From: a virus
Lineage: Duplodnaviria > Caudoviricetes
IMG/VR virus record: IMGVR_UViG_3300033066_002238
Coordinates: 4,440 to 68,439 of that record
Direction: 5' to 3' (one strand)
Length of the DNA: 64,000 bases
How positions within the stretch are numbered: position 1 is the stretch's first letter; each line of letters opens with the position of its first letter. The position numbers and the translations under genes were made by a program. Shown here one piece after another: positions 1,272-63,238 of the stretch. Under the pieces are notes generated by a model. The model did not search any database. It saw nothing but the letters and a program-made list of their open reading frames with translations, and had not been told where the DNA came from.

Positions 1272-1775
1272 ATGCCCGGCCCCACCACACAGCCTGCGGA
1301 TGAAGAGAAGCAGGTGGCCCGCCGCTTCGATGTGCACGTGCGTGCGCTGCGCGCCGAGGCGCAGGAGCCGGTGTCGGCCGAGCGGGCGCGGTGGCTCGCG
1401 GATCGCGCCTTCGCTGCCGCCGAGCAGCTCCTGCTGGTCCTGCCCTCCCTGGAGCGCGGGGCGGTCGGGGGCCAGGCCGCTGCGCAGGTGCTGGCGGTGC
1501 TGCAGCACCTGTCCGCCGAGGAGGCAGAGGCGCGGGTGGAGCGCCGCGCGCACATCCTGCACGCCCACGGCTACGCGCAGGAGGCGCTGCACAAGGCGCT
1601 CTCGGCGCGGCGCTGGGCGCACACCGAGCAGGTGCAGGGGCGGCGCTTTGCGATCTGGGACGTGCAGGACACGCTCATCCGCTGCGCCTTCTCCGTGCGG
1701 GAGCTCGCGCACGTGGTGTCGATCCTGCCCCTGTGCCAGCTGGTCTTAACCACTTTCGAGGAGCAGCCCCGATGA
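1272..1775 (+). CDS. Hypothetical protein
   Basis: GC3-rich ORF after promoter; ATGA-coupled to next gene. Confidence 0.7.
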   Translation: MPGPTTQPADEEKQVARRFDVHVRALRAEAQEPVSAERARWLADRAFAAAEQLLLVLPSLERGAVGGQAAAQVLAVLQHLSAEEAEARVERRAHILHAHGYAQEALHKALSARRWAHTEQVQGRRFAIWDVQDTLIRCAFSVRELAHVVSILPLCQLVLTTFEEQPR

Positions 1776-2293
1776 TCCTGCATGCCCCGGATGACGTGCC
1801 ACAGGCCTTCCGCCTCTACCTCGCTCGCGCGCTGTGCGACAAGACGCGCCCCTTGCACGGCTTTGGCACAACGCAGATCTCGGGCGCGGCCTCGCTCGCG
1901 ACGCTGCTCGGGTGCCGTGTGGCCCACGTGCTGCGCAGCTTCAACTATTACCACTGCCCCTTCTCGATGCATCGCGCCCTGGAGCACTTCAACCGCCCCG
2001 CGCGCCAACTCGGCGCCCACACCTGGCCCATGCTGGGCCTGGCGCGGCTGTCGATCCAGGGGCCATGGCTCGACATCGAGGGCGGGGACCTGGAGCATCG
2101 GCACTGGGTAGCGCTCGCCTTTGTCGATGGTATCGATATGGTCTACGACATCAACAAGGAGGAGGGGGGAGGCTGGGACACACGGGCGGAGTGGGAGACA
2201 ACCACGATGCGGCGGCTCCTCGGAGAGGACGCCGACCACGAAGGCGCCACGGGCTGGCGCTTCTTCAAGACGCTGGAGATCATTGATCCATGA
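1772..2293 (+). CDS. Papain/C39-like fold protein, catalytic Cys replaced by Ser (paralogue of next gene)
   Basis: QISGAASLA versus ASCGPAALA in the neighbour; shared WPxLGL..GPW, HWVxLAFVDG..VYD(I/V)N, GGWxTR..WE, GATGW. Confidence 0.65.
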   Translation: MILHAPDDVPQAFRLYLARALCDKTRPLHGFGTTQISGAASLATLLGCRVAHVLRSFNYYHCPFSMHRALEHFNRPARQLGAHTWPMLGLARLSIQGPWLDIEGGDLEHRHWVALAFVDGIDMVYDINKEEGGGWDTRAEWETTTMRRLLGEDADHEGATGWRFFKTLEIIDP

Positions 2294-2862
2294 GGGATTT
2301 ATACACACCGACCGATGTCAACGAAGCCGCTGCGCGCTTCAACGCCAGCTGCGGCCCCGCCGCGCTCGCCGCGGTGCAACAAAAGACCGTGTGCGACATC
2401 ATGAGAGCCTTCCCGGGGTGGCGCGGCTACTGCAACCCGAGCACGATGAAGCACGCGATCGGCCTTGTCGCCGGGCGTGACTCCTTCGACGAGAAGCCGG
2501 GGACCTTCTGGCCGCTCCTCGGCCTTGGCTTTGTGCAGTTCTGCGGCCCCTGGGAGCAGGTGAGCGTGGCCGCGTCCTACCGGCGCACGCACTGGGTGGG
2601 CCTGGCCTTCGTGGATGGCCAGTTCTACGTCTATGACGTGAACGCGGTGACGGTGGACAAGAGCGCAGCCGAGAAGATGATCGGCCAGCCGTTCACGCTC
2701 GCGAACGTCGAGAAGGTGATGGCCGCGACGCTCATCCAGGGTGGCTGGGCGACGCGCGATCAGTGGGAGAAAGACACGCTGCCGCAGCTCCTGCGCACCA
2801 CCAAGGGCGCCACCGGGTGGTACATGCGCCAGGTGCTGCAGGTGAAGAGGATCGCACCATGA
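2290..2862 (+). CDS. Papain/C39-like cysteine peptidase-fold protein
   Basis: SCGPAALAA (Cys), THWV (His), VYDVN (Asp/Asn) in papain-like order. Confidence 0.65.
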   Translation: MRDLYTPTDVNEAAARFNASCGPAALAAVQQKTVCDIMRAFPGWRGYCNPSTMKHAIGLVAGRDSFDEKPGTFWPLLGLGFVQFCGPWEQVSVAASYRRTHWVGLAFVDGQFYVYDVNAVTVDKSAAEKMIGQPFTLANVEKVMAATLIQGGWATRDQWEKDTLPQLLRTTKGATGWYMRQVLQVKRIAP

Positions 2863-4637
2863 GTCACCGCCCGCCGATCCTGCGGCTGCTGGCCGAGGAG
2901 CTGATCGTCGACAACTTCGCCGGGGGTGGCGGTGCGTCCACCGGGATCCGCTTCGCGACCGGGCGCGATCCTGACATCGCCATCAACCACGATGAGGAAG
3001 CCCTGGCGATGTACCGGGCCAACCACCCCGGCACGCAGACGCTGTGCGAGGACGTGTTTGATGCGGTGCCGCGCGAGATGACGGGCGGGCGCAAGGTGGG
3101 CCTTGGCTGGTTCTCCCCCGACTGCACCTTCTTCTCCAACGCCCGGGGCGGCAAGCCCTGGCGCGACAAGAACCGCGCCCGGCGCCGCCGGGGTCTCGCC
3201 GGGGTGGTCTTGAAGTGGGCGGCGCAGGTGAAGCCGCGGGTGATCTTCGTCGAGAACGTGCCCGAGTTCAAGAAGTGGGGGCCGCTCATCAAGAACGAGA
3301 AGGGCGAGTGGATGCCCGACCCGGCGCGCGCGGGCCAGTCGTTTCGGCGCTGGTGCTCTCGCCTCAAGAACCTCGGCTACGTGGTGGAGCTGCGCGAGCT
3401 CAAGGCCTGCGACTATGGCGCGCCCACGTCGAGAAAGAGGGTGTTCATCATCGCGAGGTGCGATGGCCTGCCGATCGTGTGGCCAAAGCCGACGCACGGG
3501 CCAGGGCGGGCGCAGCAGTGGCGCACCGCGGCCGAGTGCATCGACTGGCGCCTGCCGTGCCCGTCGATCTTCGGCAGGAAGAAGCCGCTCGCGGCAGCGA
3601 CCCTGCGGCGCATCGCCAGGGGCATTCAGCGCTACGTGCTGGAGGCGGAGCGGCCCTTCATCGTGCCCCTGACACACCAGGGCAGCGATGAGCGGGTCTA
3701 CTCGGTGGATGAGCCGCTGCGCACGGTGACCGGCGCGCAGCGCGGAGAACAGGCGCTGGTGGCCCCCGTGCTGGCGCGCATCGGGCAGACGGGGGGGAAC
3801 GGATCCTACTCGAACGATGTGGGGGATCCGCTGACGACCGTCACCACCAAGGCAGAGCACCTGCTCGTGGCGCCGCTGCTGTCCCCGGTGAAGACGTGGG
3901 GCGGGGGCGGCAACGAGGCATCCCCCGCTGATCAGCCGCTGCGCACGGTGACGACATCGAAACGCGGGGAGCACGCGCTCATCATCCCGACTCTCATCCA
4001 GACCGGCTATGGGGAGCGCGACGGCCAGGCGCCGCGGGTGCCAGGGCTCGACAAGCCCCTTGGCACGGTGGTGGCCGATGGCCAGAAGCACGCGCTGGTG
4101 ACGGCCTTCCTGGCGCAGCACTTCGGTGGTGGCAAGAACGGCGTGCAGACCCCGGGCCTGCAGATGACGCTGCCGCTTGGAACGGTGACCGCGACCGATC
4201 ACCACGCGCTGGTGACAAGCAGCCTGGTGAAGCTCAAGGGCACGTGCAAGGACGGGCAATCTGTCACCGAGCCGCTTGGCACCGTGCAGGCGCAAGGGCG
4301 GCATTATGCCGAGGTGAGGGCCTTCTTGATGGCCTACTACACCGCGGACCAGGACGCGCAGCTCGGCCTGCCCCTGCCCACCGCGACCACCAAGCACCGC
4401 TTCGCGATCGTGACGGTCGAGGGGGTCGATTACGCGATCGTTGACATCGGCATGAGGATGCTGGAGCCGCGGGAGCTCTACAACGCACAGGGCTTCCCGC
4501 GCGAGTACGTGATCGACCCGATCCACAAGGGCAAGCGCTTCACCAAGACCGCGCAGGTGGCGAAGTGCGGCAACAGCGTGCCGCCCCCGGTCGCGGCGGC
4601 GCTGGCCAGGGCGCAGTTCGCTGAGGACGCGGCCTGA
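2859..4637 (+). CDS. DNA cytosine-C5 methyltransferase with repeated PLxTV-type TRD units
   Basis: VDNFAGGGGAS (motif I), SPDC (IV), ENVPEF (VI), RKR (VIII), C-terminal MRMLEPRELYNAQGFP and GNSVPPP. Confidence 0.93.
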   Translation: MSHRPPILRLLAEELIVDNFAGGGGASTGIRFATGRDPDIAINHDEEALAMYRANHPGTQTLCEDVFDAVPREMTGGRKVGLGWFSPDCTFFSNARGGKPWRDKNRARRRRGLAGVVLKWAAQVKPRVIFVENVPEFKKWGPLIKNEKGEWMPDPARAGQSFRRWCSRLKNLGYVVELRELKACDYGAPTSRKRVFIIARCDGLPIVWPKPTHGPGRAQQWRTAAECIDWRLPCPSIFGRKKPLAAATLRRIARGIQRYVLEAERPFIVPLTHQGSDERVYSVDEPLRTVTGAQRGEQALVAPVLARIGQTGGNGSYSNDVGDPLTTVTTKAEHLLVAPLLSPVKTWGGGGNEASPADQPLRTVTTSKRGEHALIIPTLIQTGYGERDGQAPRVPGLDKPLGTVVADGQKHALVTAFLAQHFGGGKNGVQTPGLQMTLPLGTVTATDHHALVTSSLVKLKGTCKDGQSVTEPLGTVQAQGRHYAEVRAFLMAYYTADQDAQLGLPLPTATTKHRFAIVTVEGVDYAIVDIGMRMLEPRELYNAQGFPREYVIDPIHKGKRFTKTAQVAKCGNSVPPPVAAALARAQFAEDAA

Positions 4638-4906: not shown

Positions 4907-5393
4907 CCTGCTTGGCGCCGGCGCCGCCACCGCGCCCCAGAACAACCGCCCCGACCGCGCGGACCTGGCCGACCCGCTGAGCCGCGGGGACGCCCGCGCC
5001 GCCGCGCCGCGCCGCACCGATGCGCGGCCCCTGCCCAAGGTGGAGTGGCCGAGCTGGGCCAGCGCCTGGCTCGCCGCGCCCGATGCCGCCTGCTACCTGC
5101 CCGCTGCGGAGGAGCCCACCCCGGCCGCGCAGGGTGCCCGGGGGCGCTTCCCGCTCGGGGGCTTGGTCCGGGCCACGGTGCGCCTGGCGGTGCCGCGGGC
5201 GGGGACGCTCGGCGTCGTGGTGGGCCACACCGCTTTGGGCGAGGTGTGCGTGCGCCAGGCGCCCGGGAGCCTGCTGGCGATGCCGGTGCCCGCTGCGCAG
5301 CTGATGCTGGAGCAGACCCCGGCGCCGCCCCCTCCCGAGGCTGTGAACCCGGTGCCGAACGAGGACGAGTACGACGATGAGGAGCTGCTATGA
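4899..5393 (+). CDS. Hypothetical protein
   Basis: Overlap-coupled ORF, acidic tail. Confidence 0.6.
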
Positions 5394-5836
5394 AGCGACG
5401 TGAGGCGGCGACCGACCGCCAGCAAGAGGTGCTGGACTTCATCAACAGCTACGCCACGGCGCACGGCTACCCGCCGACGCTGCGCGAGATCGGCAAGGGC
5501 CTCGGCATCCAGTCGACCAACGGGGTGACCGATCACCTGAAGGCGCTGGAGAAGAAGGGCTACGTGCAGCGCACGAAGCTGCACTCGCGCGGCATCGTCC
5601 TTGTGCAGGAGCAGCCCGTCAGGGCGTGCGGCGCGCCCGGCGCACCGCCACCGCCCGGGGCCGCGGTGGAAGAGGCGGTGCAGGAGACAGCGCGCCTGCG
5701 CCAGCAGCTCATGGCCGAGCTCGCGCGCCTGGAGGGCCTTGGCTCCGAGATCGTCGAGAAGATAGAGCTGCACGAGAAGGGCCACGGAGCAAAGGCGCGT
5801 ACCTCGCTCACGTTCCTGCGCCGGGTGCTGGCATGA
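5390..5836 (+). CDS. LexA-type winged-helix DNA-binding domain protein lacking the S24 peptidase domain
   Basis: [48 protein letters not shown], then coiled-coil tail. Confidence 0.85.
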
Positions 5837-6126
5837 GCGCCGGGGCCTTCAGCATCGGCGGGCGCACGTGGCCGGGCCTCTCGAAGCTCATCGAGGAGGC
5901 GGGCGAGGTGCTGCAGGTGGCGGGGAAGCTCATCGCCACCGGGGGCCTCGCGCAGCACTGGGACGGCTCGAACCTGCGGGAGAGGCTGCAGGAGGAGCTT
6001 GGCGATCTCACCGCCGCGGTGCGCTTCTTCGCGCGCGTGAACAACCTGGACGAAGACGTGATCGCCAGGCGGGCGCGGGAGAAGGAGAAGACCTTCTGGC
6101 AGTGGCACACGGAGCAGGGGCGATGA
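5833..6126 (+). CDS. MazG-like NTP pyrophosphohydrolase
   Basis: [13 protein letters not shown] and LQEELGDL acidic motifs. Confidence 0.8.
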
Positions 6127-10630: not shown

Positions 10631-10839
10631 TCCTCCAGCGCGCGCTCATCTGCGCCGCGGTGGCGCTCCCCACGACCATCGCGGCCCCGGCGCCCCTCTC
10701 GACGCCCCACGCGGCCTCACGGGCCCGGTGCGAGGACGACTTCGACTGCCCTATGCACTGGACGTGCGCGGCGCGGCGCTGCCAGCCGCCGCCTGATCCG
10801 CTTGCTCGTCCTCGTCTTCCCGCTTCGCGCTCTCGATGA
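10627..10839 (+). CDS. Small putatively secreted Cys-rich protein
   Basis: Hydrophobic N-terminus; CEDDFDCPMHWTCAARRC four-Cys motif. Confidence 0.5.
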   Translation: MILQRALICAAVALPTTIAAPAPLSTPHAASRARCEDDFDCPMHWTCAARRCQPPPDPLARPRLPASRSR

Positions 10840-11248
10840 GCAGCGGCGTGATGGGGAGGCGCGGCCCCGGCGCCGCCAGCTTCACCTCGCCCTGGGTGAG
10901 CACGTAAGACCCTCCCTCCCAGGCCAGCATGCCGCGCACCGCCTGGCGCCCGAGCAGCACCCGCTGCTCCTCCATCCGCGCATGGGCGATCTGCCCCTCC
11001 TGGCACACGATCCACCCGACCGACTCGCCGCTGCGCAGCGTGATGCTGGCGCTCCTATGCTCCTGCTCCAGCACCTGCAGGAGCGTGCCGAGCGAGAGCG
11101 CATCCATGCTGCCGCGAAGCGCCCCGGGCACAGGCGCTGCTGCCGCGCCGCCCCGGCCCTGCCACAGCGCGAGGAGCGCGGCGCCGCCGCAGGCCCCGCA
11201 GGAGAACACGGCCACGGCGGACAGGAGGAGCACGGGCAGCGAGATCAC
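10751..11248 (-). CDS. Membrane-anchored DUF4388 (PATAN-like) domain protein
   Basis: N-terminal TM helix then LRGSMDALSLGTLLQVLEQEHRSASITL..GWIVCQEGQIAHA..GRQAVRGMLAWEGGSY..ITPLLIESAKRED; GGAGG RBS before GTG. Confidence 0.85.
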   Translation of the reverse strand: MISLPVLLLSAVAVFSCGACGGAALLALWQGRGGAAAAPVPGALRGSMDALSLGTLLQVLEQEHRSASITLRSGESVGWIVCQEGQIAHARMEEQRVLLGRQAVRGMLAWEGGSYVLTQGEVKLAAPGPRLPITPLLIESAKREDEDEQADQAAAGSAAPRTSSA

Positions 11249-18677: not shown

Positions 18678-19029
18678 AACAGATGGAGGTGCCTGTGACT
18701 GGAATTATGCAGCAGTGGACTCATGCACTTGGCCTGCGTCAGCAGGGCGGAAGAGCACGACCTTCCTTATGGCCTGGGATCCCCACCTGTTCTACGCGAT
18801 GGCGATGCAGGTTGCCGGGGACCATGACTGCCTGCCGCATCACTACATCATGCATCTCGTCCACGCCGCAGAGGTCATCGGGTACAACCACCCTCAGGAC
18901 GAGATCCGGGGCCATTTCCGTAGCTGGTACCTGCTGATGTGCAGGAAGCTCCACGTCAACCCAGAGACGGAAGCGCAGATGAACGAACGCCTCAACGCCG
19001 ATGAAGAGACGTTCCTGGCTGGTCAGTGA
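18674..19029 (+). pseudogene. Frameshifted/internally deleted phage hypothetical gene
   Basis: Coupled ATG frame (..IMQQWTHALGLRQQG) switches to a second frame (..LPHHYIMHLVHAAEVIGYNHP..) near 18745. Confidence 0.4.
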
Positions 19030-44255: not shown

Positions 44256-46112
44256 CTACTTGTTCAGGTTGGCCAGGATCGCCGCCGGGGTGGTGCTAAA
44301 GCTCAGGGCCTGATCGAGCACGTCCTGCTCGGAGACGCCCGCGGGGAGCTGCGCCCGCTGCGCGGCGGTCAGCTTGACCGTGCCATCGCCCCCCTCGCTG
44401 CCGCCCTGGCCCGTGGTCTCGGTGCCCTTCTGGGGCTGCGGCTGCAGGTCCTTGGGCACCTCGGCCGGGGTCAGATCCTGGCTGATCTTGAGCGGCGGCG
44501 AGACATCGAGCCAGGCCCGCGCTTCCGCCACGCCGAGCTTCTGCATCATGGGCACCTGCGCCGGCACGATCTTCATCGTGAGCTTGCCGTCGGCCCCGGC
44601 GCGCTTCCCCAGACCCTCCTCGATGATCTCATCGAGCTTCTGCTGGGCGAGCTGCACGCGGGTCTGCCCGAGCGCCTCCAGCTCCTTCACCACGGCCTCG
44701 GCGTCGACCGCGCCGCCGCACAGCTGCCGCGCGGTGGCTAGGATCGGCGCGTCGCGCTGGGTGTTCGAGTGCAGCGCCAGGAGCGACGCGGCCACCTCGC
44801 CGGGGGTGCCCTTGCCGGTGATCTGCTTGGCGGCGGCGAACACGGGGGTGAAGATCTTGAGCTCGCGGGCGCCCGCCACCTCCTCCTTGAGGGTCGGCAG
44901 CGCGGAGAGCACCAGATCCCAGCGCTCCTGGCCGGTGATGGTGGACAGCTGCTCCATCGCGCCGAGCGCGCTCCAGCCCTGCTTGGCGGCCTTGGCGAGC
45001 GCGGTGGCGGCGGCCTTCTGCTCGCCCTCGGGCAGGCGGGACAGGCCCTTCACCGTCTCGTTGATGCGGGACACCTCGGCCTCGCTCGGGGCGGTGGTCT
45101 CCTCGCCCGCCAGGCTCGCGAGCTGCACGCCGTAGTAGGCGAGGCGCTTGGAGGCCTCGCCGCACATCTTGGACAGCTGCGGGAGCTCTCCCTTCTTGCC
45201 CGACTCCTCCATGTACTCCATGAGGCCGAGGCAGAGGCTCATCTCGTCAGCAACGATCCCGATCAGGCACTTGAGGGAGTAGAGCATCCCGTATTGCATC
45301 GTCAGAGTCTCCCGGGCCAGCGTCTCGCGGCCCATGATCACGTGATGAGCCCAGGCAGCCGGGGCCTGTCTCGATGAGAGCGCGGCCCGCGGCGCGGGCG
45401 CAGGTGGGGAAGCGGCAGGAGCAGGCGTCGGCGCTGCCGGGGTGGGTGCAGCGGCAGGGGCGGCGGCGCGGCCCGCGAGCTGGGCGGCGCGCACCTCGCC
45501 ATCCTCCTCCTCCAGCGGCAGCGACAGGAGCAGCGGATCCGCGTCCACGACGGTGTAGGGCACCGAGAGGGAGGCGGCGACCATCGCGGCCTGGCCCTTG
45601 GTGGCGGGCATGCAGGTGACGGCGATGTTCAGGATCTTCAGGATGCGCCCCGTCTTGGGCTCATACTCAAACCAGGGGCTCCAGAAGCGCATCTCGCCGT
45701 CGCGGATCATCTTGTCGCAGCGCGCGCACCAGTTGATGTCGACCGCCCACAGGCCCGTCTCCCGGGCCTGCAGATTGAACCAGCCCGCGGCGATCTTCTC
45801 GTAGCCCGGGATGTCCGGGTTCGCCATGTCGTGGTTGTAGTCAAACACCCCCTTGTGCGAGATGCCCCCGCTCCAGTCCTGCCAGTCGGACAGGACCGCG
45901 GTCATCGACTTCTCATCGCACAGGAAGTTGCCCTTGGTGGTGCGGACCTTCCCGGCGGGGAAGGCGAGGATCTCGGTCGGGGGCACGCGCAGGCTCGCGT
46001 CGGCCTCTCCACCCATCGTCGCGAGCGTGACCAGCTCCCCCAGATCGAGGAGGCAGGCCTTGCCCCGGTCGGGGCCGGGGGGCGGAGCGCTGCGGACGTG
46101 TAGGATCTGCAC
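44256..46112 (-). CDS. Mu gpI-like prohead protease/scaffold
   Basis: P.G..RT.KG.F, FDYNH, AAGW, LWAV.INW, RFWSP.F, NIAVTCMPA; coiled-coil scaffold tail. Confidence 0.85.
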   Translation of the reverse strand: MQILHVRSAPPPGPDRGKACLLDLGELVTLATMGGEADASLRVPPTEILAFPAGKVRTTKGNFLCDEKSMTAVLSDWQDWSGGISHKGVFDYNHDMANPDIPGYEKIAAGWFNLQARETGLWAVDINWCARCDKMIRDGEMRFWSPWFEYEPKTGRILKILNIAVTCMPATKGQAAMVAASLSVPYTVVDADPLLLSLPLEEEDGEVRAAQLAGRAAAPAAAPTPAAPTPAPAASPPAPAPRAALSSRQAPAAWAHHVIMGRETLARETLTMQYGMLYSLKCLIGIVADEMSLCLGLMEYMEESGKKGELPQLSKMCGEASKRLAYYGVQLASLAGEETTAPSEAEVSRINETVKGLSRLPEGEQKAAATALAKAAKQGWSALGAMEQLSTITGQERWDLVLSALPTLKEEVAGARELKIFTPVFAAAKQITGKGTPGEVAASLLALHSNTQRDAPILATARQLCGGAVDAEAVVKELEALGQTRVQLAQQKLDEIIEEGLGKRAGADGKLTMKIVPAQVPMMQKLGVAEARAWLDVSPPLKISQDLTPAEVPKDLQPQPQKGTETTGQGGSEGGDGTVKLTAAQRAQLPAGVSEQDVLDQALSFSTTPAAILANLNK

Positions 46113-46754: not shown

Positions 46755-48245
46755 CTAGAGGTCCGCCTCACTCAACCCGATCCGCAGGGCCAGTGCAAGC
46801 TGATCGGCCTTCGCCTGCCGCCGCTCGCTCTCGGTGAGCCCGCGCAGCCCCCGCACCTTCTGTTCCGGGGTCCAGGCATCCACACCGCCCCCGAGCGCGT
46901 CGAGGAGGAGGGCGAGCTTGCGCACGTAGGGCGGCCAGCGCGGCTCGGGCCAGAAGCGCAGCGCGCACAGGCCTTCGGCGATAGCGTGATCGGGGCCGCG
47001 CAGCGCCAGGCACGACAGCTCCGCCGTGGGCCGCACGCGCCGCTGCCACAGCGCCAGCACCCGATCGACGCGCCCGAAGCCATCGGGGGCGGTGATCGGC
47101 ACGAGGCCCTCGCGGCGGCTGCGCAGCCAGCTCGCGAGGAGGCGCCCGAAGCAGTAGGTGATCGCCGCGGCCGGGCCGTAGCCCTCCAGGTGATCGGTGC
47201 CCTCGTAGGCGCCCGCGTCCTCGTAGCCGTCCCCGATGAGGAGCTGGCGGCGGTCGGCGGAGAGCGCCGCGGGATCAGCGCCGCCGCCCCCGCCAAAGCC
47301 CCACAGCGTGAGGGCCGCATCGGGCCAGGCCCTGGCGAGCGCGTGCCACTCGGAGAGCGCCACCCTGGCGCCTTCCACGGACAGAGCACCAAGGTCAAAG
47401 CGCAGGCGCGGGTAGTTCGCCGCGGCCCACGCCGCGGCCTCCTCGATGCGCTGCCAGCCCCCCGGCGGCTGCAGGCGCAGCTCGTCCTGCAGCTGAGGGA
47501 TCTGGCGGCGCCAGTCCTGCATGGCGCGGTGGTAGGCCTCGTAGAGCGGCGGCGGGAAGCGCCAGGAGGTGCCCGCGAGCTCCTGCAGGGCCGCCGTGGT
47601 CTGGGCGCCGGCTCGCTGCTCGGGGAAATACTCCTCCAGCACCGGGGGCTTGCCCCAGCCGCCGGGCTGCGGCCGCTCGGGCGGCTCCGCGGGGCCGGGG
47701 CCGTGCGCCTCCGCCTCCCCCGGGGTGAGCGCGCGCACCGAGGAGCGGCAGCGCACGTGCAGCGGCGGCCAGTTGCGCTGCCAGAAGGGATCGTCGAAGC
47801 GCCGCACGATGCCGGCGCGGTGCCAGCAGATCTGGGAGGTGCGATAGTCGAGCAGCGGATCGAAGCGCAGGAAGGGGCGCTCCTCCAGGCGATCGGGCAG
47901 GAGCAGCTCGACGAAGCGGCCCGCGTTGTAGGCGAGCTGCAGGTTTGACTCCATGAGCGCGAGCAGCGCCGGGGCCTGCGCGTCCCCCCAGCCCTTGGCC
48001 AGGGCCTCCATGGTGGAGAGCTCGAACTCGTCGAAGCTCTGATCGGCGGCGAGGGCCTGATCGGCCTTCTCCCACACGACGCGCAGCACGTTCAGGTTCG
48101 CGGCGCTGGCCACGGTGAACGCGCGGCGGCGCGCCTGATCATCGAGCGCATCCCACTTGCCGCGCGGCAGCACCGGCCGCTCCCGCATCCACGCCATGAT
48201 GGCCCGGCGCTCGGGGCCGCGCAGGTCACGCCCCGCCATCCCCAT
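46755..48245 (-). CDS. MuF (Mu gpF) minor head protein with degenerate zincin-like C-terminal domain
   Basis: RAFTVA, YNAGR, D.RTS.IC, WPPLH..CRS; C-terminal ITYCFGR and LSCLA...AIAEG. Confidence 0.85.
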   Translation of the reverse strand: MGMAGRDLRGPERRAIMAWMRERPVLPRGKWDALDDQARRRAFTVASAANLNVLRVVWEKADQALAADQSFDEFELSTMEALAKGWGDAQAPALLALMESNLQLAYNAGRFVELLLPDRLEERPFLRFDPLLDYRTSQICWHRAGIVRRFDDPFWQRNWPPLHVRCRSSVRALTPGEAEAHGPGPAEPPERPQPGGWGKPPVLEEYFPEQRAGAQTTAALQELAGTSWRFPPPLYEAYHRAMQDWRRQIPQLQDELRLQPPGGWQRIEEAAAWAAANYPRLRFDLGALSVEGARVALSEWHALARAWPDAALTLWGFGGGGGADPAALSADRRQLLIGDGYEDAGAYEGTDHLEGYGPAAAITYCFGRLLASWLRSRREGLVPITAPDGFGRVDRVLALWQRRVRPTAELSCLALRGPDHAIAEGLCALRFWPEPRWPPYVRKLALLLDALGGGVDAWTPEQKVRGLRGLTESERRQAKADQLALALRIGLSEADL

Positions 48246-49917
48246 CGCCCTCCTTCTTCGCCGCGTAGGTGCCGACGCCCACCGCGAGGCTCATCGCGTC
48301 ATTTAGGATCCACATGAGCTGCTGTGGATCGAGCGTCGGCAGGAGCTTGGTGAGGCGCTCCTTGAGCGCGCCGTAGGGGTCCTTCTCATCTCGGCAGGCC
48401 TTGATCTCGTCCAGGATCGCGCCGGTGACCACCTGGCCCACGATCTCGACCGCATCGAGCGCGGCGCCGCCGCTCAGGCGGTCGGTGGCGAGCTGGCCCC
48501 CGATGAAGGGATCGCGCCCCCAGTGCATGAGGGTGGGCGTCTGCCGCGCGAGCGCCGCGCGCACCGTCTCGGCGTCGGCGGGCTTCTTCTTCTGCTTGCC
48601 GCTCTTGCCGGGGCGGTCGTCGCGCGGGCCATCGGCTGGGTGCTCCCCATCCCCGGGCGGATCCGCCGTCGGCGGCAGCATCTTCGAGCCTGCGACGATC
48701 GGCAGCCTGAAGATGTCCGCGTACTGCACGTGCTCCACCTGCACCCCGGCCTTTTGGAAGTTCTGCAGCGCGACGCTGGCGTAGCTGAAGGCCTGGGCGT
48801 TGAGGAGCCGCGTCTTGGCGGCGCGCTCGGTGTCCTCGGGCGGGGTGGCGTCCCAGATGGCCCTCGGCGCGTCCTGGATGCGCTTGAGGCCCCGCACCCG
48901 CTGCAGGTACGGGAAGATCACCTGGCGGTGCGTCGTCTCCATGAGGATCTGCACGTCGCCTTCGAGGAAGTCCTGGCGCACGGTCTGGTGCACCTTCGCC
49001 GCCGCGAGCGACCCGCTCTTCACGCGGGTCGTCAGGTTCTGGCCGAGGTACAGGATCGCCAGCGCTTCCTCGACGGCCAGGCGCAGCTCCTTGAACACCT
49101 GCCAGTTCGCGATCTTCGGCTCCAGCAGGAACAGCTCGCAGCTGTCCGGGAGGACGATCGTGGAGTCGGAGACCATCTTGCGCAGCGCGGCGATGGCTTT
49201 TTGGACGTCCTCGATCTCGGCGGTGGACGCCTTTGCCTTGAGCACCTTGCTGGGGCTGCCATGGACCTTGCTGTTGCGGCTCCAGTCGGCGAGCGTCGCC
49301 TGCCGGATGACGAGGAGCAGGCCCACCGCGCGCACGAGCGCCGCCATCCACGGCTGGCGCTCCAGCCACGAGGTGAACACCACCCACTTGCCATCCCCCG
49401 GCTCCACGGTGACGAGGCCCTCTTCCTTCGTCATCACCTGGAATCGCTTGAGCTGATCGTTGTAGAGCACGTGCGACGGGTGCCAGGCGTGCAGCGTCGG
49501 CGTGCCCGTGTTCCACCCGCGGAGTTCGCAGACGCAGAACCCCATGTGCAGGGTCCAGAAGAGCACCTCGCTCTGCACGTTCTTGGGGAACAGGGTGGGG
49601 AACTGATCGAGCAGCTCCTGATCCTCGGGCTCGATGCGGAAGGGGAGACCCTTGACGGCGAGCAGGCGCGTCTGGATGAGGCCCTGGATCTCATCATCGC
49701 GCATGAGCGAGTCGCACAGGGTGGAGCTGCGCACGAAGTTGTGAATCTCGTGCTCCGCGTTCACCGCCTGGATGTTCGGCCACGTCCAGATCGGCGGGGG
49801 CCGCAGCGGCAGGAACTCGTCGTGGTCGATGCGTTCACCGCTCGCCTTGCCCTCGCGAAGGCGTGGCTGCGGGAACTTCTTGGCGATTGCGGTACCGATG
49901 CGCGCGAAGATGCCCAT
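48226..49917 (-). CDS. Portal protein (DUF935/Mu gp29-like)
   Basis: LMRDDEI.GL..TR..AV, LYLGQNLT...GS.AA..VH.VR.D motifs. Confidence 0.88.
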   Translation of the reverse strand: MGIFARIGTAIAKKFPQPRLREGKASGERIDHDEFLPLRPPPIWTWPNIQAVNAEHEIHNFVRSSTLCDSLMRDDEIQGLIQTRLLAVKGLPFRIEPEDQELLDQFPTLFPKNVQSEVLFWTLHMGFCVCELRGWNTGTPTLHAWHPSHVLYNDQLKRFQVMTKEEGLVTVEPGDGKWVVFTSWLERQPWMAALVRAVGLLLVIRQATLADWSRNSKVHGSPSKVLKAKASTAEIEDVQKAIAALRKMVSDSTIVLPDSCELFLLEPKIANWQVFKELRLAVEEALAILYLGQNLTTRVKSGSLAAAKVHQTVRQDFLEGDVQILMETTHRQVIFPYLQRVRGLKRIQDAPRAIWDATPPEDTERAAKTRLLNAQAFSYASVALQNFQKAGVQVEHVQYADIFRLPIVAGSKMLPPTADPPGDGEHPADGPRDDRPGKSGKQKKKPADAETVRAALARQTPTLMHWGRDPFIGGQLATDRLSGGAALDAVEIVGQVVTGAILDEIKACRDEKDPYGALKERLTKLLPTLDPQQLMWILNDAMSLAVGVGTYAAKKEGDGDGGA

Positions 49918-55045: not shown

Positions 55046-56005
55046 ATGATCAAGCCCCACATCCTTGTTAGCGTACTCATCCTTATTCTGTTTGCCTGCG
55101 GCCAAGCTCCCGACGGTGGACCGCCGATTGATGGTGTAATCTGGAATGTGCGTAACTTCACACTATCCCCGCTTGGGACACCGGTCACAATGAGCGCTGC
55201 GCAGTGTGGGCGCCCGAGCGCCAGCACCCTGATCGTTGCGCTGCACGATCTGGGGTACGACCGTCGCCAGTTCACAGAGACCGCGCAAGGTCTCGGCGCC
55301 TCCATGGCGCAGGCGCTGTGTAGCAGCGGGGTCGCGGTGCTCGCACCCGACCTCCTCGGCGCCGGCTCCTCCGCCCGCGTGGATGGTGATCAGCTCACCC
55401 TGGATGTGCAGGCCCTGGCGATGCAGCAGATGCTCGGCCAGCTGCCGCGCTGGGAGCGCATCGTGCTGCTCGGCCAGGGCGGCGGCGGCGCGGTGGCGGT
55501 GCGCGCCTCGACGGGCATCGCACGCACGGCGCTCGCGCTCCTCGGCTTCTCGATTCACAGCTACGTCTTCCCGGTGCTGCCCGTCTCCTTTCAGCCGATC
55601 CTGCAGCAGGGGCCTTACGTCGACTGGCGCCAGCCCGCCCCCGGCCCCGACTCGATCCGCAGCTTTTTGGGCTACTACCAGCCTGGCGCAGCCCCCGGCG
55701 CCGCGGCCTGGGATGACAAGGTGCTCGGCCAGGCGGCGCCGCGCGGCTCCTGGTGGCAGATGCTGCAGCTCCAGGGGCAGCCGACCGTGCTGCGCCCTGG
55801 CCTAGTCACCCACCCCGTGCTGGAGGTGCTGGGCGACCGCGATCCCTGGTTCCCGGCCTCGCAGGGGCAGCAGGACCAGGCGCTCTTCCCGCTGGCGCCC
55901 CGCTTCGAGGTGGCGACCGCAGCGCAGACGGGGCACGCGCTGCCGCAGCACCTGAGCGCCCCGCAGACCACGCAGCTCCTGCTTGCCTGGGTGCAGAGTC
56001 TATAG
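55046..56005 (+). CDS. Lipoprotein with alpha/beta-hydrolase fold lacking the nucleophile Ser
   Basis: Lipobox LFAC; ALHD, PDLLGAGSS, LLGQGGGG (G-x-S-x-G site has Gly), GDRD, TGH. Confidence 0.75.
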   Translation: MIKPHILVSVLILILFACGQAPDGGPPIDGVIWNVRNFTLSPLGTPVTMSAAQCGRPSASTLIVALHDLGYDRRQFTETAQGLGASMAQALCSSGVAVLAPDLLGAGSSARVDGDQLTLDVQALAMQQMLGQLPRWERIVLLGQGGGGAVAVRASTGIARTALALLGFSIHSYVFPVLPVSFQPILQQGPYVDWRQPAPGPDSIRSFLGYYQPGAAPGAAAWDDKVLGQAAPRGSWWQMLQLQGQPTVLRPGLVTHPVLEVLGDRDPWFPASQGQQDQALFPLAPRFEVATAAQTGHALPQHLSAPQTTQLLLAWVQSL

Positions 56006-56783: not shown

Positions 56784-57405
56784 TGAAGCCCCCTTCGTGC
56801 CCGAAGGCCTGCCGCGCGTCGCGTTCCCCGACCCCCTGAAGCGCCGCAGCAAGCACACCCCGAGCGGCCCAGAGCAGATGGAGCTGCGCTACCGGGAGAT
56901 CCAGGAGCGCCTGCTCGTGCGGGGCCAGCATCCCACCAAGGTCTGCGAGGAGATGTCGAAGCTCTACGACTGCACCCCGGGGTGCGTCGTGCAGTGGATC
57001 AAGGCCGCCCGCGAGCGCTGGCGCGCGCTCACCAGCAAGGACGAGCTGGTGGACCGCCAGGAGCAGCTGGAGGCCATGGCCCACAACCTCTACGAGATGG
57101 CGCTCGGCGACCGCGCCTGGCAGGGCATGGACGAGCTGCTTGACGAGCTGCAGGCCGCCGCCGCGGGGCGCGACAAGGCGCGCCTGGCCGCGGTGGTCGA
57201 GCAGCTCCTGGCGCTGCGCAACGCCCGGCGCCCAAACCTCAAAGTGGCGGCGACCCTCATCGCGAACCTCGGCAAGTTCTACGGGCTCGGGCAGACGCTC
57301 AAGCTGGACATCCCCGGCCTCACCCTGGCCGTGGCGCAGGCGATCCCGGCGCCTGCGGAGACCACCCCGGCCGCACCGCCCAAGGCCGATGGCGAAGGCC
57401 AGTAA
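56755..57405 (+). CDS. Terminase small subunit (putative)
   Basis: Helical HTH-like protein overlapping TerL start; TGC-TATACT-N7-ATG. Confidence 0.65.
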   Translation: MPKRRSPRPDEAPFVPEGLPRVAFPDPLKRRSKHTPSGPEQMELRYREIQERLLVRGQHPTKVCEEMSKLYDCTPGCVVQWIKAARERWRALTSKDELVDRQEQLEAMAHNLYEMALGDRAWQGMDELLDELQAAAAGRDKARLAAVVEQLLALRNARRPNLKVAATLIANLGKFYGLGQTLKLDIPGLTLAVAQAIPAPAETTPAAPPKADGEGQ

Positions 57406-59134
57406 CGATACCGTCGCGCTCGTCCGCGCCCTGTGGAAGCTGCACCAGCAGGGCAGGACCGATGTCGAGATCGTGAACCTGCTCGGGCGTCAGGGCGTCC
57501 ACATGAGCCGCTACGACGTGCAGCGCGTCATCGCTGCCGCCCGGGAGCAGGCGGAGCGCAGCGTCGCAGGCGCCCCGGCCGCGCCGCAAGACCTGCTCAG
57601 CTTCATCCCCGCCGTCTCGCCCAAGTATGGGAGGCCCCTGCACCTCCTGCCGCTCACCCAGGCGCTGGAGGCCTCGCTGCACCGGCCCATGCGGTGCGTC
57701 ATCCACGCGCCGCCCCGGCACGCGAAGTCAGAGACGATCCTTCACGCGATCGTCTACTGGATGCTCCAGAAGCCCGCGGAGGTGACGGGCTACGCGGCCT
57801 ACGGCGCGAGCCTCGCGCTCACGCAGAGCCGCAAGGCGCGCGCGATCGCGGGCCGCATGAACATCCCCCTCGCTGTCGACGCGAATCGCCTTTCGGAGTG
57901 GCGCACCGAGGAGGATGGCGGCATGCTCGCGACCTCGGTGGGTGGGCCGCTCACGGGCAAGGGCGTGATGCGCATGGTCGTCGACGACCCGATCAAGGGC
58001 CGTGCGGAGGCGGAGAGCCGCCTCATCCGCGATCGCATCTGGGACTGGTTCTCCTCCGACGTGATGACGCGAATCGAGCCCGGCGGCAGCGTGTTCGTGT
58101 GCATGACCAGGTGGCATGAGCAGGACCTGTCGGGGCGCCTGCTCAAGGAGCAGGGCAAGCACCGGCCCGAGTGCGAGGATCCCACATGCCAGGGCTGCGG
58201 GCCCGATCCGGAGAACGGCTACGAGGAGATCCGCCTCCCCGCGATCAATGACGCGGGGGAGTCGCTGTGGCCCGAGCGCTGGCCCATCGAGGCGATGCTG
58301 CGCCGCAAGAAGGAGGTGGGCGAGTACACCTGGAGCGGCCTGTACCAGGGGCGCCCGCGGCGGCGCGGCGGCAAGGTGTTCGAGGGGACCTTCTTCTACG
58401 ACCGCGCCGCGCTGCCCACCCAGGGCTACAGCATCATCATCGGCCTCGATCTGAACTACACCGAGAGCACCCAGGCAGACTGGAGCGTCGCGGTGGCGAT
58501 GATGAAGCACGGCTCGGGCGACAAGGCGAAGTTCTACATCCTGGAGGTGCTGCGGGTGCAGACGACAGCGCCGAAGCTCGCCGACGAGCTGCGCAAGATG
58601 CGGCGGCGCCACCACGGCGCGCGGATCGTCAGCATCTACTACGGCACCGAGACCGGCACGATCGATCTGTTCCGCACAGACCGTAAGCTACCCATCACCG
58701 GCATCAAGCGATCGGGCGACAAGTTCGTCCGCGCGCAGCCCTGCGCGGCGGCATGGAACGCAGGGCGCATCATGCTGCCGCAGCGCGCCCGCCCGAGCGA
58801 GGGCGGCGACATCGAGGAGGAGGACGCGGAGTTCCCGTGGATGGATCCCTTCGTCGATGTCGTCACCGAGTTCACCGGCGTGAAGGATCTGGTGGACGAC
58901 GACGTAGACGCGCTCACCGCGGCCTACGAGGGCCTCGCTGGCGTCGGCGCTGCGATGGATGAGGAGCAGGCGGAGGCGCTCGGCGCGGCCCTCGCGGAGG
59001 GCAACAGCCCGCTCGCGCCGGGGGCAACGCCGGTGGTGTCGGTTCTGAGGCGCAAGGAGGCGGAGGAGGGGCCGCTGGCGCTCGGGCCAGCGATCGGGGC
59101 GGATCACGACGTGGGCTGGTGCTCGATCGAGTGA
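57389..59134 (+). CDS. terL: Terminase large subunit
   Basis: IHAPPRHAKS (Walker A), GGPLTGKG, VVDDP (Walker B), MTRWHEQD, YQGRP, GLD and DDDVDA nuclease acids. Confidence 0.93.
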   Translation: MAKASNDTVALVRALWKLHQQGRTDVEIVNLLGRQGVHMSRYDVQRVIAAAREQAERSVAGAPAAPQDLLSFIPAVSPKYGRPLHLLPLTQALEASLHRPMRCVIHAPPRHAKSETILHAIVYWMLQKPAEVTGYAAYGASLALTQSRKARAIAGRMNIPLAVDANRLSEWRTEEDGGMLATSVGGPLTGKGVMRMVVDDPIKGRAEAESRLIRDRIWDWFSSDVMTRIEPGGSVFVCMTRWHEQDLSGRLLKEQGKHRPECEDPTCQGCGPDPENGYEEIRLPAINDAGESLWPERWPIEAMLRRKKEVGEYTWSGLYQGRPRRRGGKVFEGTFFYDRAALPTQGYSIIIGLDLNYTESTQADWSVAVAMMKHGSGDKAKFYILEVLRVQTTAPKLADELRKMRRRHHGARIVSIYYGTETGTIDLFRTDRKLPITGIKRSGDKFVRAQPCAAAWNAGRIMLPQRARPSEGGDIEEEDAEFPWMDPFVDVVTEFTGVKDLVDDDVDALTAAYEGLAGVGAAMDEEQAEALGAALAEGNSPLAPGATPVVSVLRRKEAEEGPLALGPAIGADHDVGWCSIE

Positions 59135-60266: not shown

Positions 60267-60274
60267 CCGGGGCC

Positions 60275-60677: not shown

Positions 60678-60714
60678 CCAGCGACACCACCACTGCGAGA
60701 GGAGGCACCCGATC

Positions 60715-62022
60715 ATGCGCCGCACCAACGTCACCAAGCTTCCCTGCCCGCTCATGGACATCACCGTCTACAAGGCGGTGGGCGAGACCGCCGCCGACGC
60801 CTGCCGCCGGGCCGATGAGGAGGGGCTCATCCTCGGCAAGTACCAGGACTCAGGGAACGATGCCACCAGCGCGCCCGCGATCGGCCTGAGCGTCGAGGAG
60901 GCGACCGATCTGGTGCAGGTGGACCCCGGGCTGGTGTTCATCATCCTCAACCACCAGCTCAACGTGGACGCCGACGGCAAGACGAGCGACGGCTGCACCT
61001 TCCTGCCGGTCGGGCACACCCAGGGCGCGGGGCGAGAGGAGTGCTGGGTGGCCAGCTACCGCTGGGTGCGCAGCTACGCCTTCGACCGCGATCCCGCCCT
61101 GGAGTACACCTTCCTGCGCGCCGAGGCGGTGGCGGAGTTCAAGGCGGACGTGCTCAAGGTCGAGGCGCTGCTGGCCGAGCGCGGCCTGCGCCCGCCGCGC
61201 TGGCACGTCTGCCAGCAGGTGGACGCCCACGGGCGCGAGTGGACCGCCGAGGACGTGGCGGGGTCGTGGGGCTGCGATCTGGCGCTGCGCCAGGTGGCGG
61301 CGCGCCAGGAGGCGCTGCAGCCGCTGTCGTCCGCGCAGCTGGGCCAGCGCATGGGGTTCCCGGAGCTGCGGGGCCTCGATCCCGCCACCCTGGCTCACCT
61401 GCGGCGCTTCCCGGGCTTCCAGCGCTGGGAGGAGCAGCAGGGGCGCGGTTTCCAGGCGGATCCGCCCTACACCGCGGTGCCGCTGCCGATCGATCTCTCC
61501 ATCCCCCCGCTGCCCACCCCGGCGCCGGCCCAGCGCATGGCCTACGTGGTGTATGAGAGCGAGGAGCTGCGCGGCGTGAACCGCCTGCTCCTGGAGTTCT
61601 GCAGCCACTTCCCCGACCTCGCCTTCGTGAGCCTGCGCAGCGTGCTGGCGCTCCTGGACCTGATCAGCCCGTGGGGCGCGATGCAGGAGGGCATCGGGCA
61701 GATCGGCCTGGAGCAGGAGCTGCAGATGGGTGGCGAGGGCGAGCACGTGGCCAGCTTCACGCTCACCAGCGATGAGCTGCGGCTCATCCCGCGCGGCGGC
61801 GATCGCACCCTCGCGATCAGCCGCTGCCCCACCGGCAAGGGCACCCTGCGCTACAAGGTGATCCTCGACTACCGCGCGCGGCCCTCGCTGCGCCAGGCGG
61901 CGCTCGGGCAGGTGCAGGCGCCCGGGCTGCAGCGGCTCCTCATCGAGGAGGTGGGGCAGGGCCAGTACGCCCACCGCCCCGATCCGGCGCTGTACGACGC
62001 GATCGCCCCTGTTCAGAAATAA
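60715..62022 (+). CDS. Hypothetical protein
   Basis: GAGGAGG RBS, GC3-biased 435 aa ORF. Confidence 0.8.
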   Translation: MRRTNVTKLPCPLMDITVYKAVGETAADACRRADEEGLILGKYQDSGNDATSAPAIGLSVEEATDLVQVDPGLVFIILNHQLNVDADGKTSDGCTFLPVGHTQGAGREECWVASYRWVRSYAFDRDPALEYTFLRAEAVAEFKADVLKVEALLAERGLRPPRWHVCQQVDAHGREWTAEDVAGSWGCDLALRQVAARQEALQPLSSAQLGQRMGFPELRGLDPATLAHLRRFPGFQRWEEQQGRGFQADPPYTAVPLPIDLSIPPLPTPAPAQRMAYVVYESEELRGVNRLLLEFCSHFPDLAFVSLRSVLALLDLISPWGAMQEGIGQIGLEQELQMGGEGEHVASFTLTSDELRLIPRGGDRTLAISRCPTGKGTLRYKVILDYRARPSLRQAALGQVQAPGLQRLLIEEVGQGQYAHRPDPALYDAIAPVQK

Positions 62023-62066: not shown

Positions 62067-62082
62067 TGACGCGGGAGCATAG

Positions 62083-62313
62083 ATGACCAACCCACACCCC
62101 AAGATCCTGATCGTCGCCTCGGTGCAGGCGTGCCAGGGCGGCGGCTTCGCGCCGCAGATCTCCGTCAACGCCTATCAGGTGCGCTGCAGCTACCCGGTGA
62201 ACGGCTACAGCCGCGCCGTCGCAGAGGATCTGGCGCGCATCGCGGCCCGGGAGGAGGGCGCGCGATACATCGGCGACTGGGATGTCAGGATCGAGGAGAA
62301 CTTCAAGTCATGA
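62083..62313 (+). CDS. Small hypothetical protein
   Basis: GGAG RBS after promoter. Confidence 0.7.
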   Translation: MTNPHPKILIVASVQACQGGGFAPQISVNAYQVRCSYPVNGYSRAVAEDLARIAAREEGARYIGDWDVRIEENFKS

Positions 62314-62699
62314 CCACGACGACCAAGGGGCCATCCGAGATGGCCAGGCGCCCTGTGACCGATCACGACATCGCCCAGCGCCTGGCGGCCTGGCAGCGCC
62401 AGTTCTGCGCCCACGGCTACGCCAAGACCCCCGTGCTCAGCACCACGTGCCTGAGCTGCGCGGTGGCCTGGCACCTGGAGGAGACCCGGGTGCAGCGCGG
62501 CACCTCGGCCCAGCTGCGCGCGGAGCTGCAGTGGAAGGATGAGGCCCTGCAGGGCGCCACGGTGCTCTTCACGCGGGCGCGGGTGCGCGGGGCGATGTGG
62601 AAGCGCCTCGCCAGCACGCTCTACCAGGGCCTGGGGGCCACCCCGTTCATCCGCGGCGCTGTGATGAAGCGCTGGCGCACCAAGGAAGGTGCGCGGTGA
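62310..62699 (+). CDS. Hypothetical protein
   Basis: ATGA-coupled. Confidence 0.65.
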   Translation: MTTTTKGPSEMARRPVTDHDIAQRLAAWQRQFCAHGYAKTPVLSTTCLSCAVAWHLEETRVQRGTSAQLRAELQWKDEALQGATVLFTRARVRGAMWKRLASTLYQGLGATPFIRGAVMKRWRTKEGAR

Positions 62700-63238
62700 C
62701 CGGCCCCTACGGCGTGCGCGTGGCAGCGCAGGAGCTGCTCGATCGGATCCGGGGCCTGGCCCTGGAGACCACCGAGGAGGAGGCAGAGCGGGCGCATGCC
62801 CTACTGCTCAAGCTCGATGGCCAGATGCAGCACCTGCAGATGCACCTGGACAACGCCCCCATGCCGATCGGCGCGTGGGGCACAGAGCCTGCGGATGCGG
62901 CGGCGCGCCTGCGGGGGGCGGAGCTCGCGCCGGGCGCCGGGGCCCGCTCGCTCAGCGTGCAGGAGGAGATCGCCTACCTCGGCGGCACCCTGAAGCGGCC
63001 GACCTATGCGCAGGTGGCGATCGAGTACGAGCCGGCGCGGGCGCTCCTGTACCAGGAGGGTTTGGCGCTGTACCTGTGGAGCTGGCGCGACATCGCCACC
63101 ACGCCCGACGCGCTGGCCGAGGCGATCGCGAGCGACGTGGCGCAGGCGATCGGCTGCCGCTCGGTGAAGGTGATCATTACCCAGCGCGCGAGCGTCCTGT
63201 CGGGGGCGCTGGCGATGCAGGCCTACGTGGCGAGGTGA
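62696..63238 (+). CDS. Coiled-coil plus degenerate QueF-like T-fold protein
   Basis: RPTYAQVAIEYEP....L..EGLALYLWSWRD......LAEAIASDVAQAIG.R.VKV follows the QueF pattern, but Cys/Asp/Glu catalytic residues are absent. Confidence 0.65.
   Translation: MTGPYGVRVAAQELLDRIRGLALETTEEEAERAHALLLKLDGQMQHLQMHLDNAPMPIGAWGTEPADAAARLRGAELAPGAGARSLSVQEEIAYLGGTLKRPTYAQVAIEYEPARALLYQEGLALYLWSWRDIATTPDALAEAIASDVAQAIGCRSVKVIITQRASVLSGALAMQAYVAR

Follow-up and report, generated by a model that had tools for sequence, protein, structure and literature searches.

The stretch of DNA analyzed here (the window, 64,000 nucleotides) spans bases 4440 to 68439 of the linear, 68,439-bp IMG/VR virus record IMGVR_UViG_3300033066_002238, which represents an uncultured phage, has an estimated completeness of ~89%, and carries ~87 genes in a gene call based on GC3 (the GC content of third codon positions). 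Distributed along the window are four genes that resemble enzymes and lack canonical catalytic residues: a paralogue of the large terminase (TerL) N-terminal ATPase domain (22479 to 23111, minus strand), a lipoprotein with an alpha/beta-hydrolase fold (55046 to 56005, plus strand), a papain-like protein encoded beside a Cys-bearing paralogue (1772 to 2293, plus strand), and a QueF-type T-fold protein (62696 to 63238, plus strand). An initial annotation had listed five uninterrupted, well-coupled open reading frames (ORFs) of this kind, the fifth being a zincin domain in a MuF-type head protein, and had attributed their number to common selection for binding-only variants. The four ORFs named above are indeed uninterrupted, have a coding-type GC3 of 0.84 to 0.93, and either are coupled to their neighbors by ATGA or GTGA overlaps or have their own ribosome-binding site (RBS); the zincin domain did not hold up. 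We consider it reasonably probable that at least three, and probably four, of these genes are pseudoenzyme-like genes that arose independently by duplication or domain capture and are now binding-only or repurposed.

A stand-alone copy of the terminase ATPase domain

The clearest of the four cases is the 210-amino-acid product of 22479 to 23111, assigned as a TerL paralogue from homology, an ESM Atlas model, and a phylogenetic tree. It is 31% identical over 139 residues to the ATPase domain of the phage's own TerL (BLASTP E value of 3e-10), and its Atlas model has a predicted template modeling score (pTM) of 0.79 and template modeling (TM) scores of 0.81 to 0.83 to TerL models. Exhaustive searching with phmmer over 1.84 billion representatives gave, apart from the protein itself, only TerL-type proteins (55, mostly full-length), and the matches all ran through their N-terminal ATPase region, with E values no better than 2e-8; the copy is thus without orthologues. 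A word-indexed search likewise returned only the protein itself, and a word-based lookup in an index of other DNA stretches gave no look-alike.

The motifs that handle ATP are largely gone, in agreement with the claim that Walker A had been lost. Walker A reads PPVECAIT (22920 to 22943) in place of PPRHxKT, with the Arg, His, Lys, and Thr all replaced, and Walker B reads AFVDPF (22671 to 22688), with one Asp left and the second acid lost. The Ser of the AES motif is also lost, the columns of the TRWH..D coupling motif (C-motif) are gaps, and the protein, which is 210 residues long, stops short of the nuclease domain that all aligned TerLs have. Because the P-loop Lys and Thr and the C-motif are missing, hydrolysis of ATP by this protein is very unlikely. 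Among 31 TerL ATPase domains, 35 columns reach a conservation of at least 90%; the copy retains 16 of them, mostly Gly, Pro, and aromatic residues. In the tree, its branch length is 2.2 substitutions per site, where the median is 0.68, and the copy is placed outside a clade with 97 to 98% support that includes the phage's own TerL. Together, these features point to an old or foreign copy that evolved rapidly.

The gene is ATGA-coupled on both sides, to a gene for a 66-amino-acid protein upstream and to a gene for a 174-amino-acid CHAP/NlpC-P60-like protein downstream (21958 to 22482, minus strand; Pfam CHAP E value of 0.028, PHROG endolysin E value of 0.003, and TIGR02594 E value of 2.6e-5). 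A lysis-cassette context was considered and rejected: the upstream genes, encoding 66 and 290 amino acids, are not holin-like, and no holin-like transmembrane protein flanks the copy. As a separate observation, a 45-bp segment within the gene (22834 to 22878) matches 61297 to 61343 at 79% DNA identity (E value of 1.3e-4); the second segment lies within a gene for a hypothetical protein of 435 amino acids (60715 to 62022), and the match is probably due to chance or to a shared GC-rich motif.

A protein that has kept the fold and lost the ATP-handling motifs and the nuclease most likely mimics TerL toward a TerL binder. Candidate targets would be the terminase/portal machinery of this phage or of a rival phage, or a host sensor of the Avs type. 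Binding of the TerL ATPase fold has been reported for the Avs1 to Avs3 sensors, and KpAvs2 is activated by a small phage protein that weakly resembles the TerL ATPase domain (PMC11564622, PMC13581612). Since Avs sensors are reported to recognize that fold, a dead terminase motor domain that occurs on its own is a candidate for molecular mimicry. By analogy, a role as a mimic appears to be the most attractive for this protein, with a role as a poison subunit or in assembly also a candidate.

A hydrolase-fold lipoprotein without a nucleophile

The 319-amino-acid product of 55046 to 56005 matches Pfam Abhydrolase_6 with 38.6 bits against a cutoff of 26.3 (E value of 2.4e-9). The gene has its own strong RBS and encodes a lipobox, LFAC (55088 to 55099), as a lipoprotein signal. 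The nucleophile elbow reads GQGGGG (55472 to 55489) and contains no Ser; the segment GQGGG aligns to GYSLG of PDB entry 5hdf and to GYALG of the Ser-to-Ala mutant 5hdp. The segments GDRDP (55832 to 55846) and TGHA (55928 to 55939) are retained and align to the acid and His of 5hdf and 5hdp, an assignment that is positional and comes from the sequence alignment.

Two homologues are known, at 66% and 58% identity, and both have Gly at the nucleophile position (G-x-G-x-G) while keeping the lipobox Cys, GD(R/K)DPWFP, and TGH. One of them occupies the same position, upstream of TerS and TerL, in a related phage fragment. Against the syntenic orthologue, the ratio of nonsynonymous to synonymous substitution rates (dN/dS; Nei-Gojobori) is 0.33 for the hydrolase-like gene; the corresponding values for TerL and the TerS-like gene are 0.27 and 0.50, respectively. 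The Gly common to the relatives and the dN/dS of 0.33 indicate that the nucleophile-less state is ancestral to this small clade and maintained by selection rather than the product of recent decay. The replacement of Ser by Gly that had been claimed for this gene is therefore borne out, and the dN/dS comparison, which had been suggested as a check, shows purifying selection and argues against simple decay for this gene.

One apparent cellular homologue, at positions 5770 to 6501 of L014 (a Halioglobus metagenome-assembled genome), was rejected as an antisense-frame artifact over a gene for a 643-amino-acid ketosynthase. It was the only genome match for the hydrolase alignment; antisense frames of high-GC DNA can give spurious tblastn matches.

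The conservation of the gene is observed, and its product would most likely be an exported moron protein that binds a ligand or the envelope. A conserved hydrolase-fold lipoprotein without a nucleophile, encoded beside packaging genes, would be a new candidate for a binding-only moron.

A papain-like pair in the early operon

The gene at 1772 to 2293 encodes a protein of 173 amino acids, classed as C39/Josephin-like from its paralogy and its neighbors in the Atlas. The next gene downstream (2290 to 2862, plus strand) encodes its paralogue of 190 amino acids, which has the Cys in SCGP (Cys21), the His in THWV, and the Asp in VYDV. The two proteins are 29% identical (E value of 7e-17). Ser37 of the first (TCG, 1880 to 1882) aligns with Cys21 of the second, and the segment around it reads I-S-G-A-A-S-L-A in the former and S-C-G-P-A-A-L-A in the latter. 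The Ser codon is two changes from TGC, and the surrounding helix motif is kept. His111 (2102 to 2104) and Asp126 (2147 to 2149) are retained and invariant in both paralogues, as is the longer pattern HWV(A/G)LAFVDG...VYD(I/V)N. The first protein additionally has a 17-residue insertion and, upstream of it, Cys22, which may serve as an alternative nucleophile. The gene is ATGA-coupled at both ends.

The residue change claimed for this gene is thus a Cys-to-Ser difference relative to the paralogue, and the papain-like fold is plausible from the models. No sequence match was found for the Ser37 protein in Pfam, PHROG, NCBIfam, or PDB, and none for its partner among families or in PDB. The ESM Atlas model of the Ser37 protein has a predicted local distance difference test (pLDDT) score of 0.69, and its structural neighbors, at TM scores of 0.41 to 0.57, are Peptidase_C39, C39_2, C70, NlpC/P60, and Josephin clusters along with viral hypothetical proteins. 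A two-sequence profile of the pair gave a single PDB match, Josephin-2, which is nonsignificant (E value of 0.24) and spans exactly the catalytic His...Asp strand pair (RRHWVAL...NLD) with identical spacing. The AlphaFold2 (AF2) model is poor (pLDDT of 43); its order of secondary structures is compatible with papain topology, with a helix from about residue 34, just before Ser37, followed by strands that carry His111 and Asp126. Searches for relatives found nothing beyond the pair itself, whether by a word-indexed search with the Ser37 protein, by tblastn of both paralogues against GenBank phages, or by scanning the paralogue alignment against genomes and metagenomes.

The run from 308 to 4637 consists of a DUF5131 gene, a gene for a hypothetical protein of 153 amino acids, the two papain-like paralogues, and a gene for a C5 DNA methyltransferase of 592 amino acids. 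ATGA coupling is seen at its final four junctions, and the DUF5131 gene is ~100 bp upstream. This gene order suggests that the pair works with DNA-modification or anti-restriction functions. The Cys-bearing paralogue is presumed to be the active partner given its residues, and the Ser37 protein would probably be its regulator or a substrate-trap partner.

A QueF-like protein with replaced motif residues

The gene at 62696 to 63238 encodes 180 amino acids, comprising an N-terminal helical region and a C-terminal core at about residues 96 to 161. Pfam QueF matches residues 102 to 160 with 28.6 bits against a cutoff of 27.3, and NCBIfam QueF-II (TIGR03139) matches with an E value of 1.2e-6 and 28.3 bits against an equivalog cutoff of 86.9; QueF chains in PDB match with E values of 1.2 to 2.3. 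In the alignment to Bacillus subtilis QueF (4fgc/4f8b), the substrate Asp is replaced by Thr, the lysines of the NADPH-binding QueF motif are replaced by Glu and Ala, and His-Glu is replaced by Pro-Asp. Manual extension places a Gly at the position of the thioimide Cys of QueF, just outside the HMMER alignment. Of the residue losses that had been claimed, those of the Asp, the motif, and the His-Glu pair are thus upheld within a weak fold assignment, and that of the Cys falls outside the aligned region. The identification of the protein as a QueF homologue that cannot be QueF (a nitrile reductase) is weakly supported, as judged from these alignments.

No match to DpdA, QueC, QueD, or FolE was found in the 68-kb record, which is ~89% complete, and no trace of a DpdA remnant was found in the window. 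When IMG/VR was scanned with the QueF-like protein, the sole match was a trivial one of 20 residues, and genome and metagenome scans gave nothing beyond the protein itself. In the related contig L012, whose TerL is 70% identical, a DpdA fragment scores above the family cutoff and lies between the hydrolase-like gene and TerS. The DpdA homologue there (1246 to 2066) is apparently split into ORFs of 170 and 98 amino acids; the family match covers the first ORF only, and the second is DpdA-like by eye. The QueF-like protein may be a binder of 7-deazapurines or purines. Alternatively, it may be what remains of a modification module still present in part in a close relative, and it could also be a different T-fold enzyme.

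The MuF and LexA cases

The MuF/SPP1 gp7-type minor head protein (46755 to 48245, minus strand; 496 amino acids) has its MuF domain at about residues 13 to 191. The string YCFGR, which had been read as a degenerate HExxH of a zincin, is at residue 364 (47142 to 47156), outside the MuF domain, in an orphan C-terminal extension of about residues 200 to 496. A zincin fold in this extension was unsupported in every test: no Pfam model (zincins included) matched at E values up to 10, no PDB entry matched, and the eCIS_core and MPTase-PolyVal zincin models gave no match at E values up to 10. The nearest MuF homologue aligns to residues 17 to 240 only, and the extension has no similarity to its C-terminal domain. 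The AF2 model of the extension has a pLDDT of 38. This was the one fold assignment among the five to fail.

The partial sixth case, a LexA DNA-binding domain that lacks its peptidase, is confirmed. The gene at 5390 to 5836 (plus strand) encodes a LexA-type repressor-like protein of 148 amino acids with a winged-helix DNA-binding domain (residues 7 to 68) and a helical tail. PF01726 (LexA_DNA_bind) matches with an E value of 1.2e-23, and TIGR00498 covers only model positions 3 to 72 of 203, below its cutoff; the S24 peptidase domain is missing. Such an architecture amounts to plain domain shuffling within a phage regulator. The helical tail contains HEKGH, which fits the HExxH pattern, at residue 128; it is almost certainly due to chance and shows how easily short HExxH motifs occur.

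Gene set and relatives

The GC content of the window is 67 to 72% (~69%), and 406 ORFs of at least 60 amino acids are present, in keeping with the high GC content. A Mu-type head module occupies the minus strand and includes, besides the MuF gene, the portal gene (48226 to 49917), the gene for a Mu I-type protease/scaffold (44256 to 46112), and the gene for the major head protein (42737 to 43690). TerL (57389 to 59134, plus strand; 581 amino acids; phrog_38 E value of 5e-73) follows a gene for a TerS-like protein (56797 to 57405), and alignments show that its Walker A (PPRHAKSE), Walker B (VVDDP), TRW motif, and nuclease domain are all intact. It lies ~7.5 kb from the Mu-type portal and on the opposite strand, which is unusual for a Mu-like head module; the intervening segment comprises regulators, a region of Tat/lipoprotein morons, and the gene for the hydrolase-like protein. 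Residues 1 to 64 of TerL (57389 to 57580) form an N-terminal extension of ~60 residues with a helix-turn-helix-like appearance; the orthologue P0012 retains it, and the dead paralogue and most of the other aligned TerLs lack it.

No close relative was found by megablast against GenBank phages, among which the best TerL match is ~31% identical. TerL orthologues at 63 to 70% identity occur only on two short metagenomic contigs, L003 and L012, which are 3 to 5 kb long and cover the hydrolase-TerL region only. Scans of IMG/VR with the TerL ATPase-domain copy, TerL, MuF, and the papain-like gene found nothing except the phage itself. Accessory genes include a DUF4388 gene (10751 to 11248, minus strand; E value of 3.7e-15), a gene with a YAcAr/SLOG domain (19026 to 19409, plus strand; E value of 2.2e-17), and a gene with a MazG-like pyrophosphohydrolase domain (5833 to 6126, plus strand; E value of 2.2e-4). 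SLOG and MazG domains are frequently linked to nucleotide-signal conflicts.

Co-occurrence of the four genes

We counted ~17 recognizable enzyme-like domains in the record: DUF5131, the papain-like pair, the C5 and D12 methyltransferases, MazG, ThyX, a ResIII-type helicase, ParB-N, SLOG, CHAP, the TerL ATPase-domain copy, the Mu I protease, MuF, the hydrolase, TerL, and the QueF-like protein. Four of these ~17 lack canonical residues, and the cases were selected by eye and after the fact. The binomial probability of at least four is ~0.08 at a base rate of 10% and 0.45 at a base rate of 20%; the former rate is the fraction of the human kinome that consists of pseudokinases, and such fractions vary widely by family and organism (PMC10211241). 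The cases lie on different strands and in different operons and have different origins, namely, tandem duplication within an early operon for the papain-like gene, an old or foreign version of the TerL ATPase domain placed in a late operon, a lipoprotein moron that has its own RBS, and an accessory T-fold gene.

On the simplest reading, these genes would be ordinary products of duplication or domain capture in accessory regions, acting by binding and not by their ancestral chemistry. Several points weigh against this reading. ORFs stay open easily at 69% GC, so intactness alone is weak evidence of function. Orthologues were found for neither the TerL ATPase-domain copy, the papain-like pair, nor the QueF-like gene, and dN/dS consequently comes from the hydrolase gene only. 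The papain-like fold draws on Atlas TM scores of ~0.5, the nonsignificant PDB match, and an AF2 model with a pLDDT of 43. Ser37, His111, and Asp126 could be a working triad, and the Asp and His of the hydrolase-like protein could support chemistry that is independent of a nucleophile. Finally, with the record ~89% complete, the missing preQ0 pathway genes could lie outside it.

Alternative explanations

At least one of the seemingly dead proteins may still be an enzyme through alternative residues, which we regard as rather unlikely. The candidates are the Ser37-His111-Asp126 triad or one that uses Cys22, a general base formed by the His or Asp of the hydrolase-like protein, and a different T-fold chemistry in the QueF-like protein. 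The His and Asp are strictly kept in both papain paralogues and in all three hydrolase homologues, and the pocket motifs GD(R/K)DPWFP and TGH are conserved beyond what a pure scaffold would need. Some pseudoenzymes defined by sequence do stay active through migrated residues (reviewed in PMC10211241). The TerL ATPase-domain copy, however, has neither the P-loop Lys and Thr nor the C-motif, the elbow GQGGG offers no side chain, and the QueF-like protein lacks the lysines of the NADPH motif. Moreover, a Cys-to-Ser exchange in papain-like enzymes usually abolishes activity. The Ser that stands in for Cys and the His/Asp pair leave some room for residual or alternative catalysis, which the initial annotation had named as a finding that would count against its proposal.

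It is quite unlikely that the TerL ATPase-domain copy, the Ser37 paralogue, and the QueF-like gene are drifting, functionless relics that stay open only through high GC and their positions in operons. The very long branch of the TerL copy would fit such drift, all three genes score below average for coding in the gene caller, and no orthologues were found for any of them. The DpdA fragment in the relative, with no pathway genes found in the record, is also consistent with the loss of a module. Yet the TerL copy has acquired no stop or frameshift after ~2 substitutions per site, its ATGA coupling is exact on both sides, and it is still predicted to have a TerL-like fold (pTM of 0.79 and TM score of 0.83). 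The Ser37 codon TCG is two changes away from TGC, with the helix motif kept. Phage genomes are also under strong pressure to delete useless DNA.

The proposal of the initial annotation, that the lineage has been selected as a whole for binding-only mimics (sponges, decoys, and dominant-negative inhibitors directed against host defenses or rival phages) and that the co-occurrence is meaningful, is in our judgment distinctly improbable. Three to four real cases among ~87 genes, one of them conserved under purifying selection, are in its favor, and the reported binding of the TerL fold by Avs1 to Avs3 would give a TerL-fold mimic a plausible target (PMC11564622, PMC13581612). Against this, 4 of ~17 is not significantly above the 10% base rate, with cases picked post hoc, one of the five fold assignments failed, and the genes have no operon, promoter context, or origin in common. 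One would also expect a TerL mimic to trigger an Avs sensor instead of blinding it. Common selection is accordingly not supported, and this proposal stands unproven beyond the individual cases.

Its strongest form, in which the lineage repeatedly turns enzyme folds into binding-only conflict tools and the co-occurrence comes from one selective regime, is highly doubtful; were it true, the TerL copy would be a mimic of the terminase ATPase aimed at pattern-recognition sensors of the host or at the packaging motor of a rival phage, the Ser37 protein a substrate trap, and the lipoprotein a sponge for envelope ligands. At present, the umbrella claim adds little over the individual cases, which we continue to read as separate products of duplication and domain capture. 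Cellular pseudoenzymes have been thoroughly documented, but to our knowledge those of phages have scarcely been catalogued. Should any one of these proteins act in conflict between phage and host or between phages, it would represent a new type of countermeasure.

Comparison with known systems

Variable C-terminal effector domains on MuF proteins are known, and the PBECR domain of Mu gp30 has been reported to be inactive (Iyer et al. 2017, PMC5512222). The MuF protein of this phage resembles such proteins in having a MuF domain followed by a variable C-terminal extension, but that extension matches neither a zincin, PBECR, nor the C-terminal domain of the nearest homologue.

The QueF-like protein resembles unimodular QueF (the preQ0 reductase; 4f8b/4fgc, TIGR03139) in its putative T-fold core, which two hidden Markov model (HMM) libraries detect at E values of ~1e-6. 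It differs from QueF in scoring far below the equivalog cutoff, in the replacement of catalytic and NADPH-motif residues, with Gly for Cys, in its extra N-terminal helical region, and in the lack of a preQ0 pathway or DpdA in the record.

The papain-like pair resembles the C39 and Josephin peptidases of clan CA, together with their noncatalytic C39-like domains, in the order of its residues, in which a nucleophile at the N terminus of a helix is followed by His and then Asp on consecutive strands, and the spacing of HWVAL..VDG..Y.D is the same as in Josephin-2. In contrast to those families, the pair has no HMM-level membership in any family, one paralogue has Ser at the nucleophile position, and both are phage orphans for which no relatives were found.

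The lipoprotein is like Abhydrolase_6 proteins and 5hdf in its domain-wide HMM match and in its aligned acid and His. It departs from the superfamily in having Gly for Ser in all three members of its clade, in its lipoprotein signal, and in its location beside the terminase genes.

The TerL copy has a fold homologous to, and a sequence collinear with, the TerL N-terminal ASCE ATPase domains of the Terminase_6N type, the phage's own TerL included; they have in common one Asp of Walker B and the Gly, Pro, and aromatic residues at structural positions. Unlike TerL, it lacks the Walker A residues, the second Walker B acid, the AES Ser, TRW, the nuclease, and the N-terminal extension, and it is a stand-alone protein whose late operon lies far from the genes for packaging. 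It is comparable to Ksap2 of Stephanstirmvirinae phages, described in the KpAvs2 study (PMC11564622), which is also a short, stand-alone, TerL-ATPase-like phage protein and is among those read by Avs sensors.

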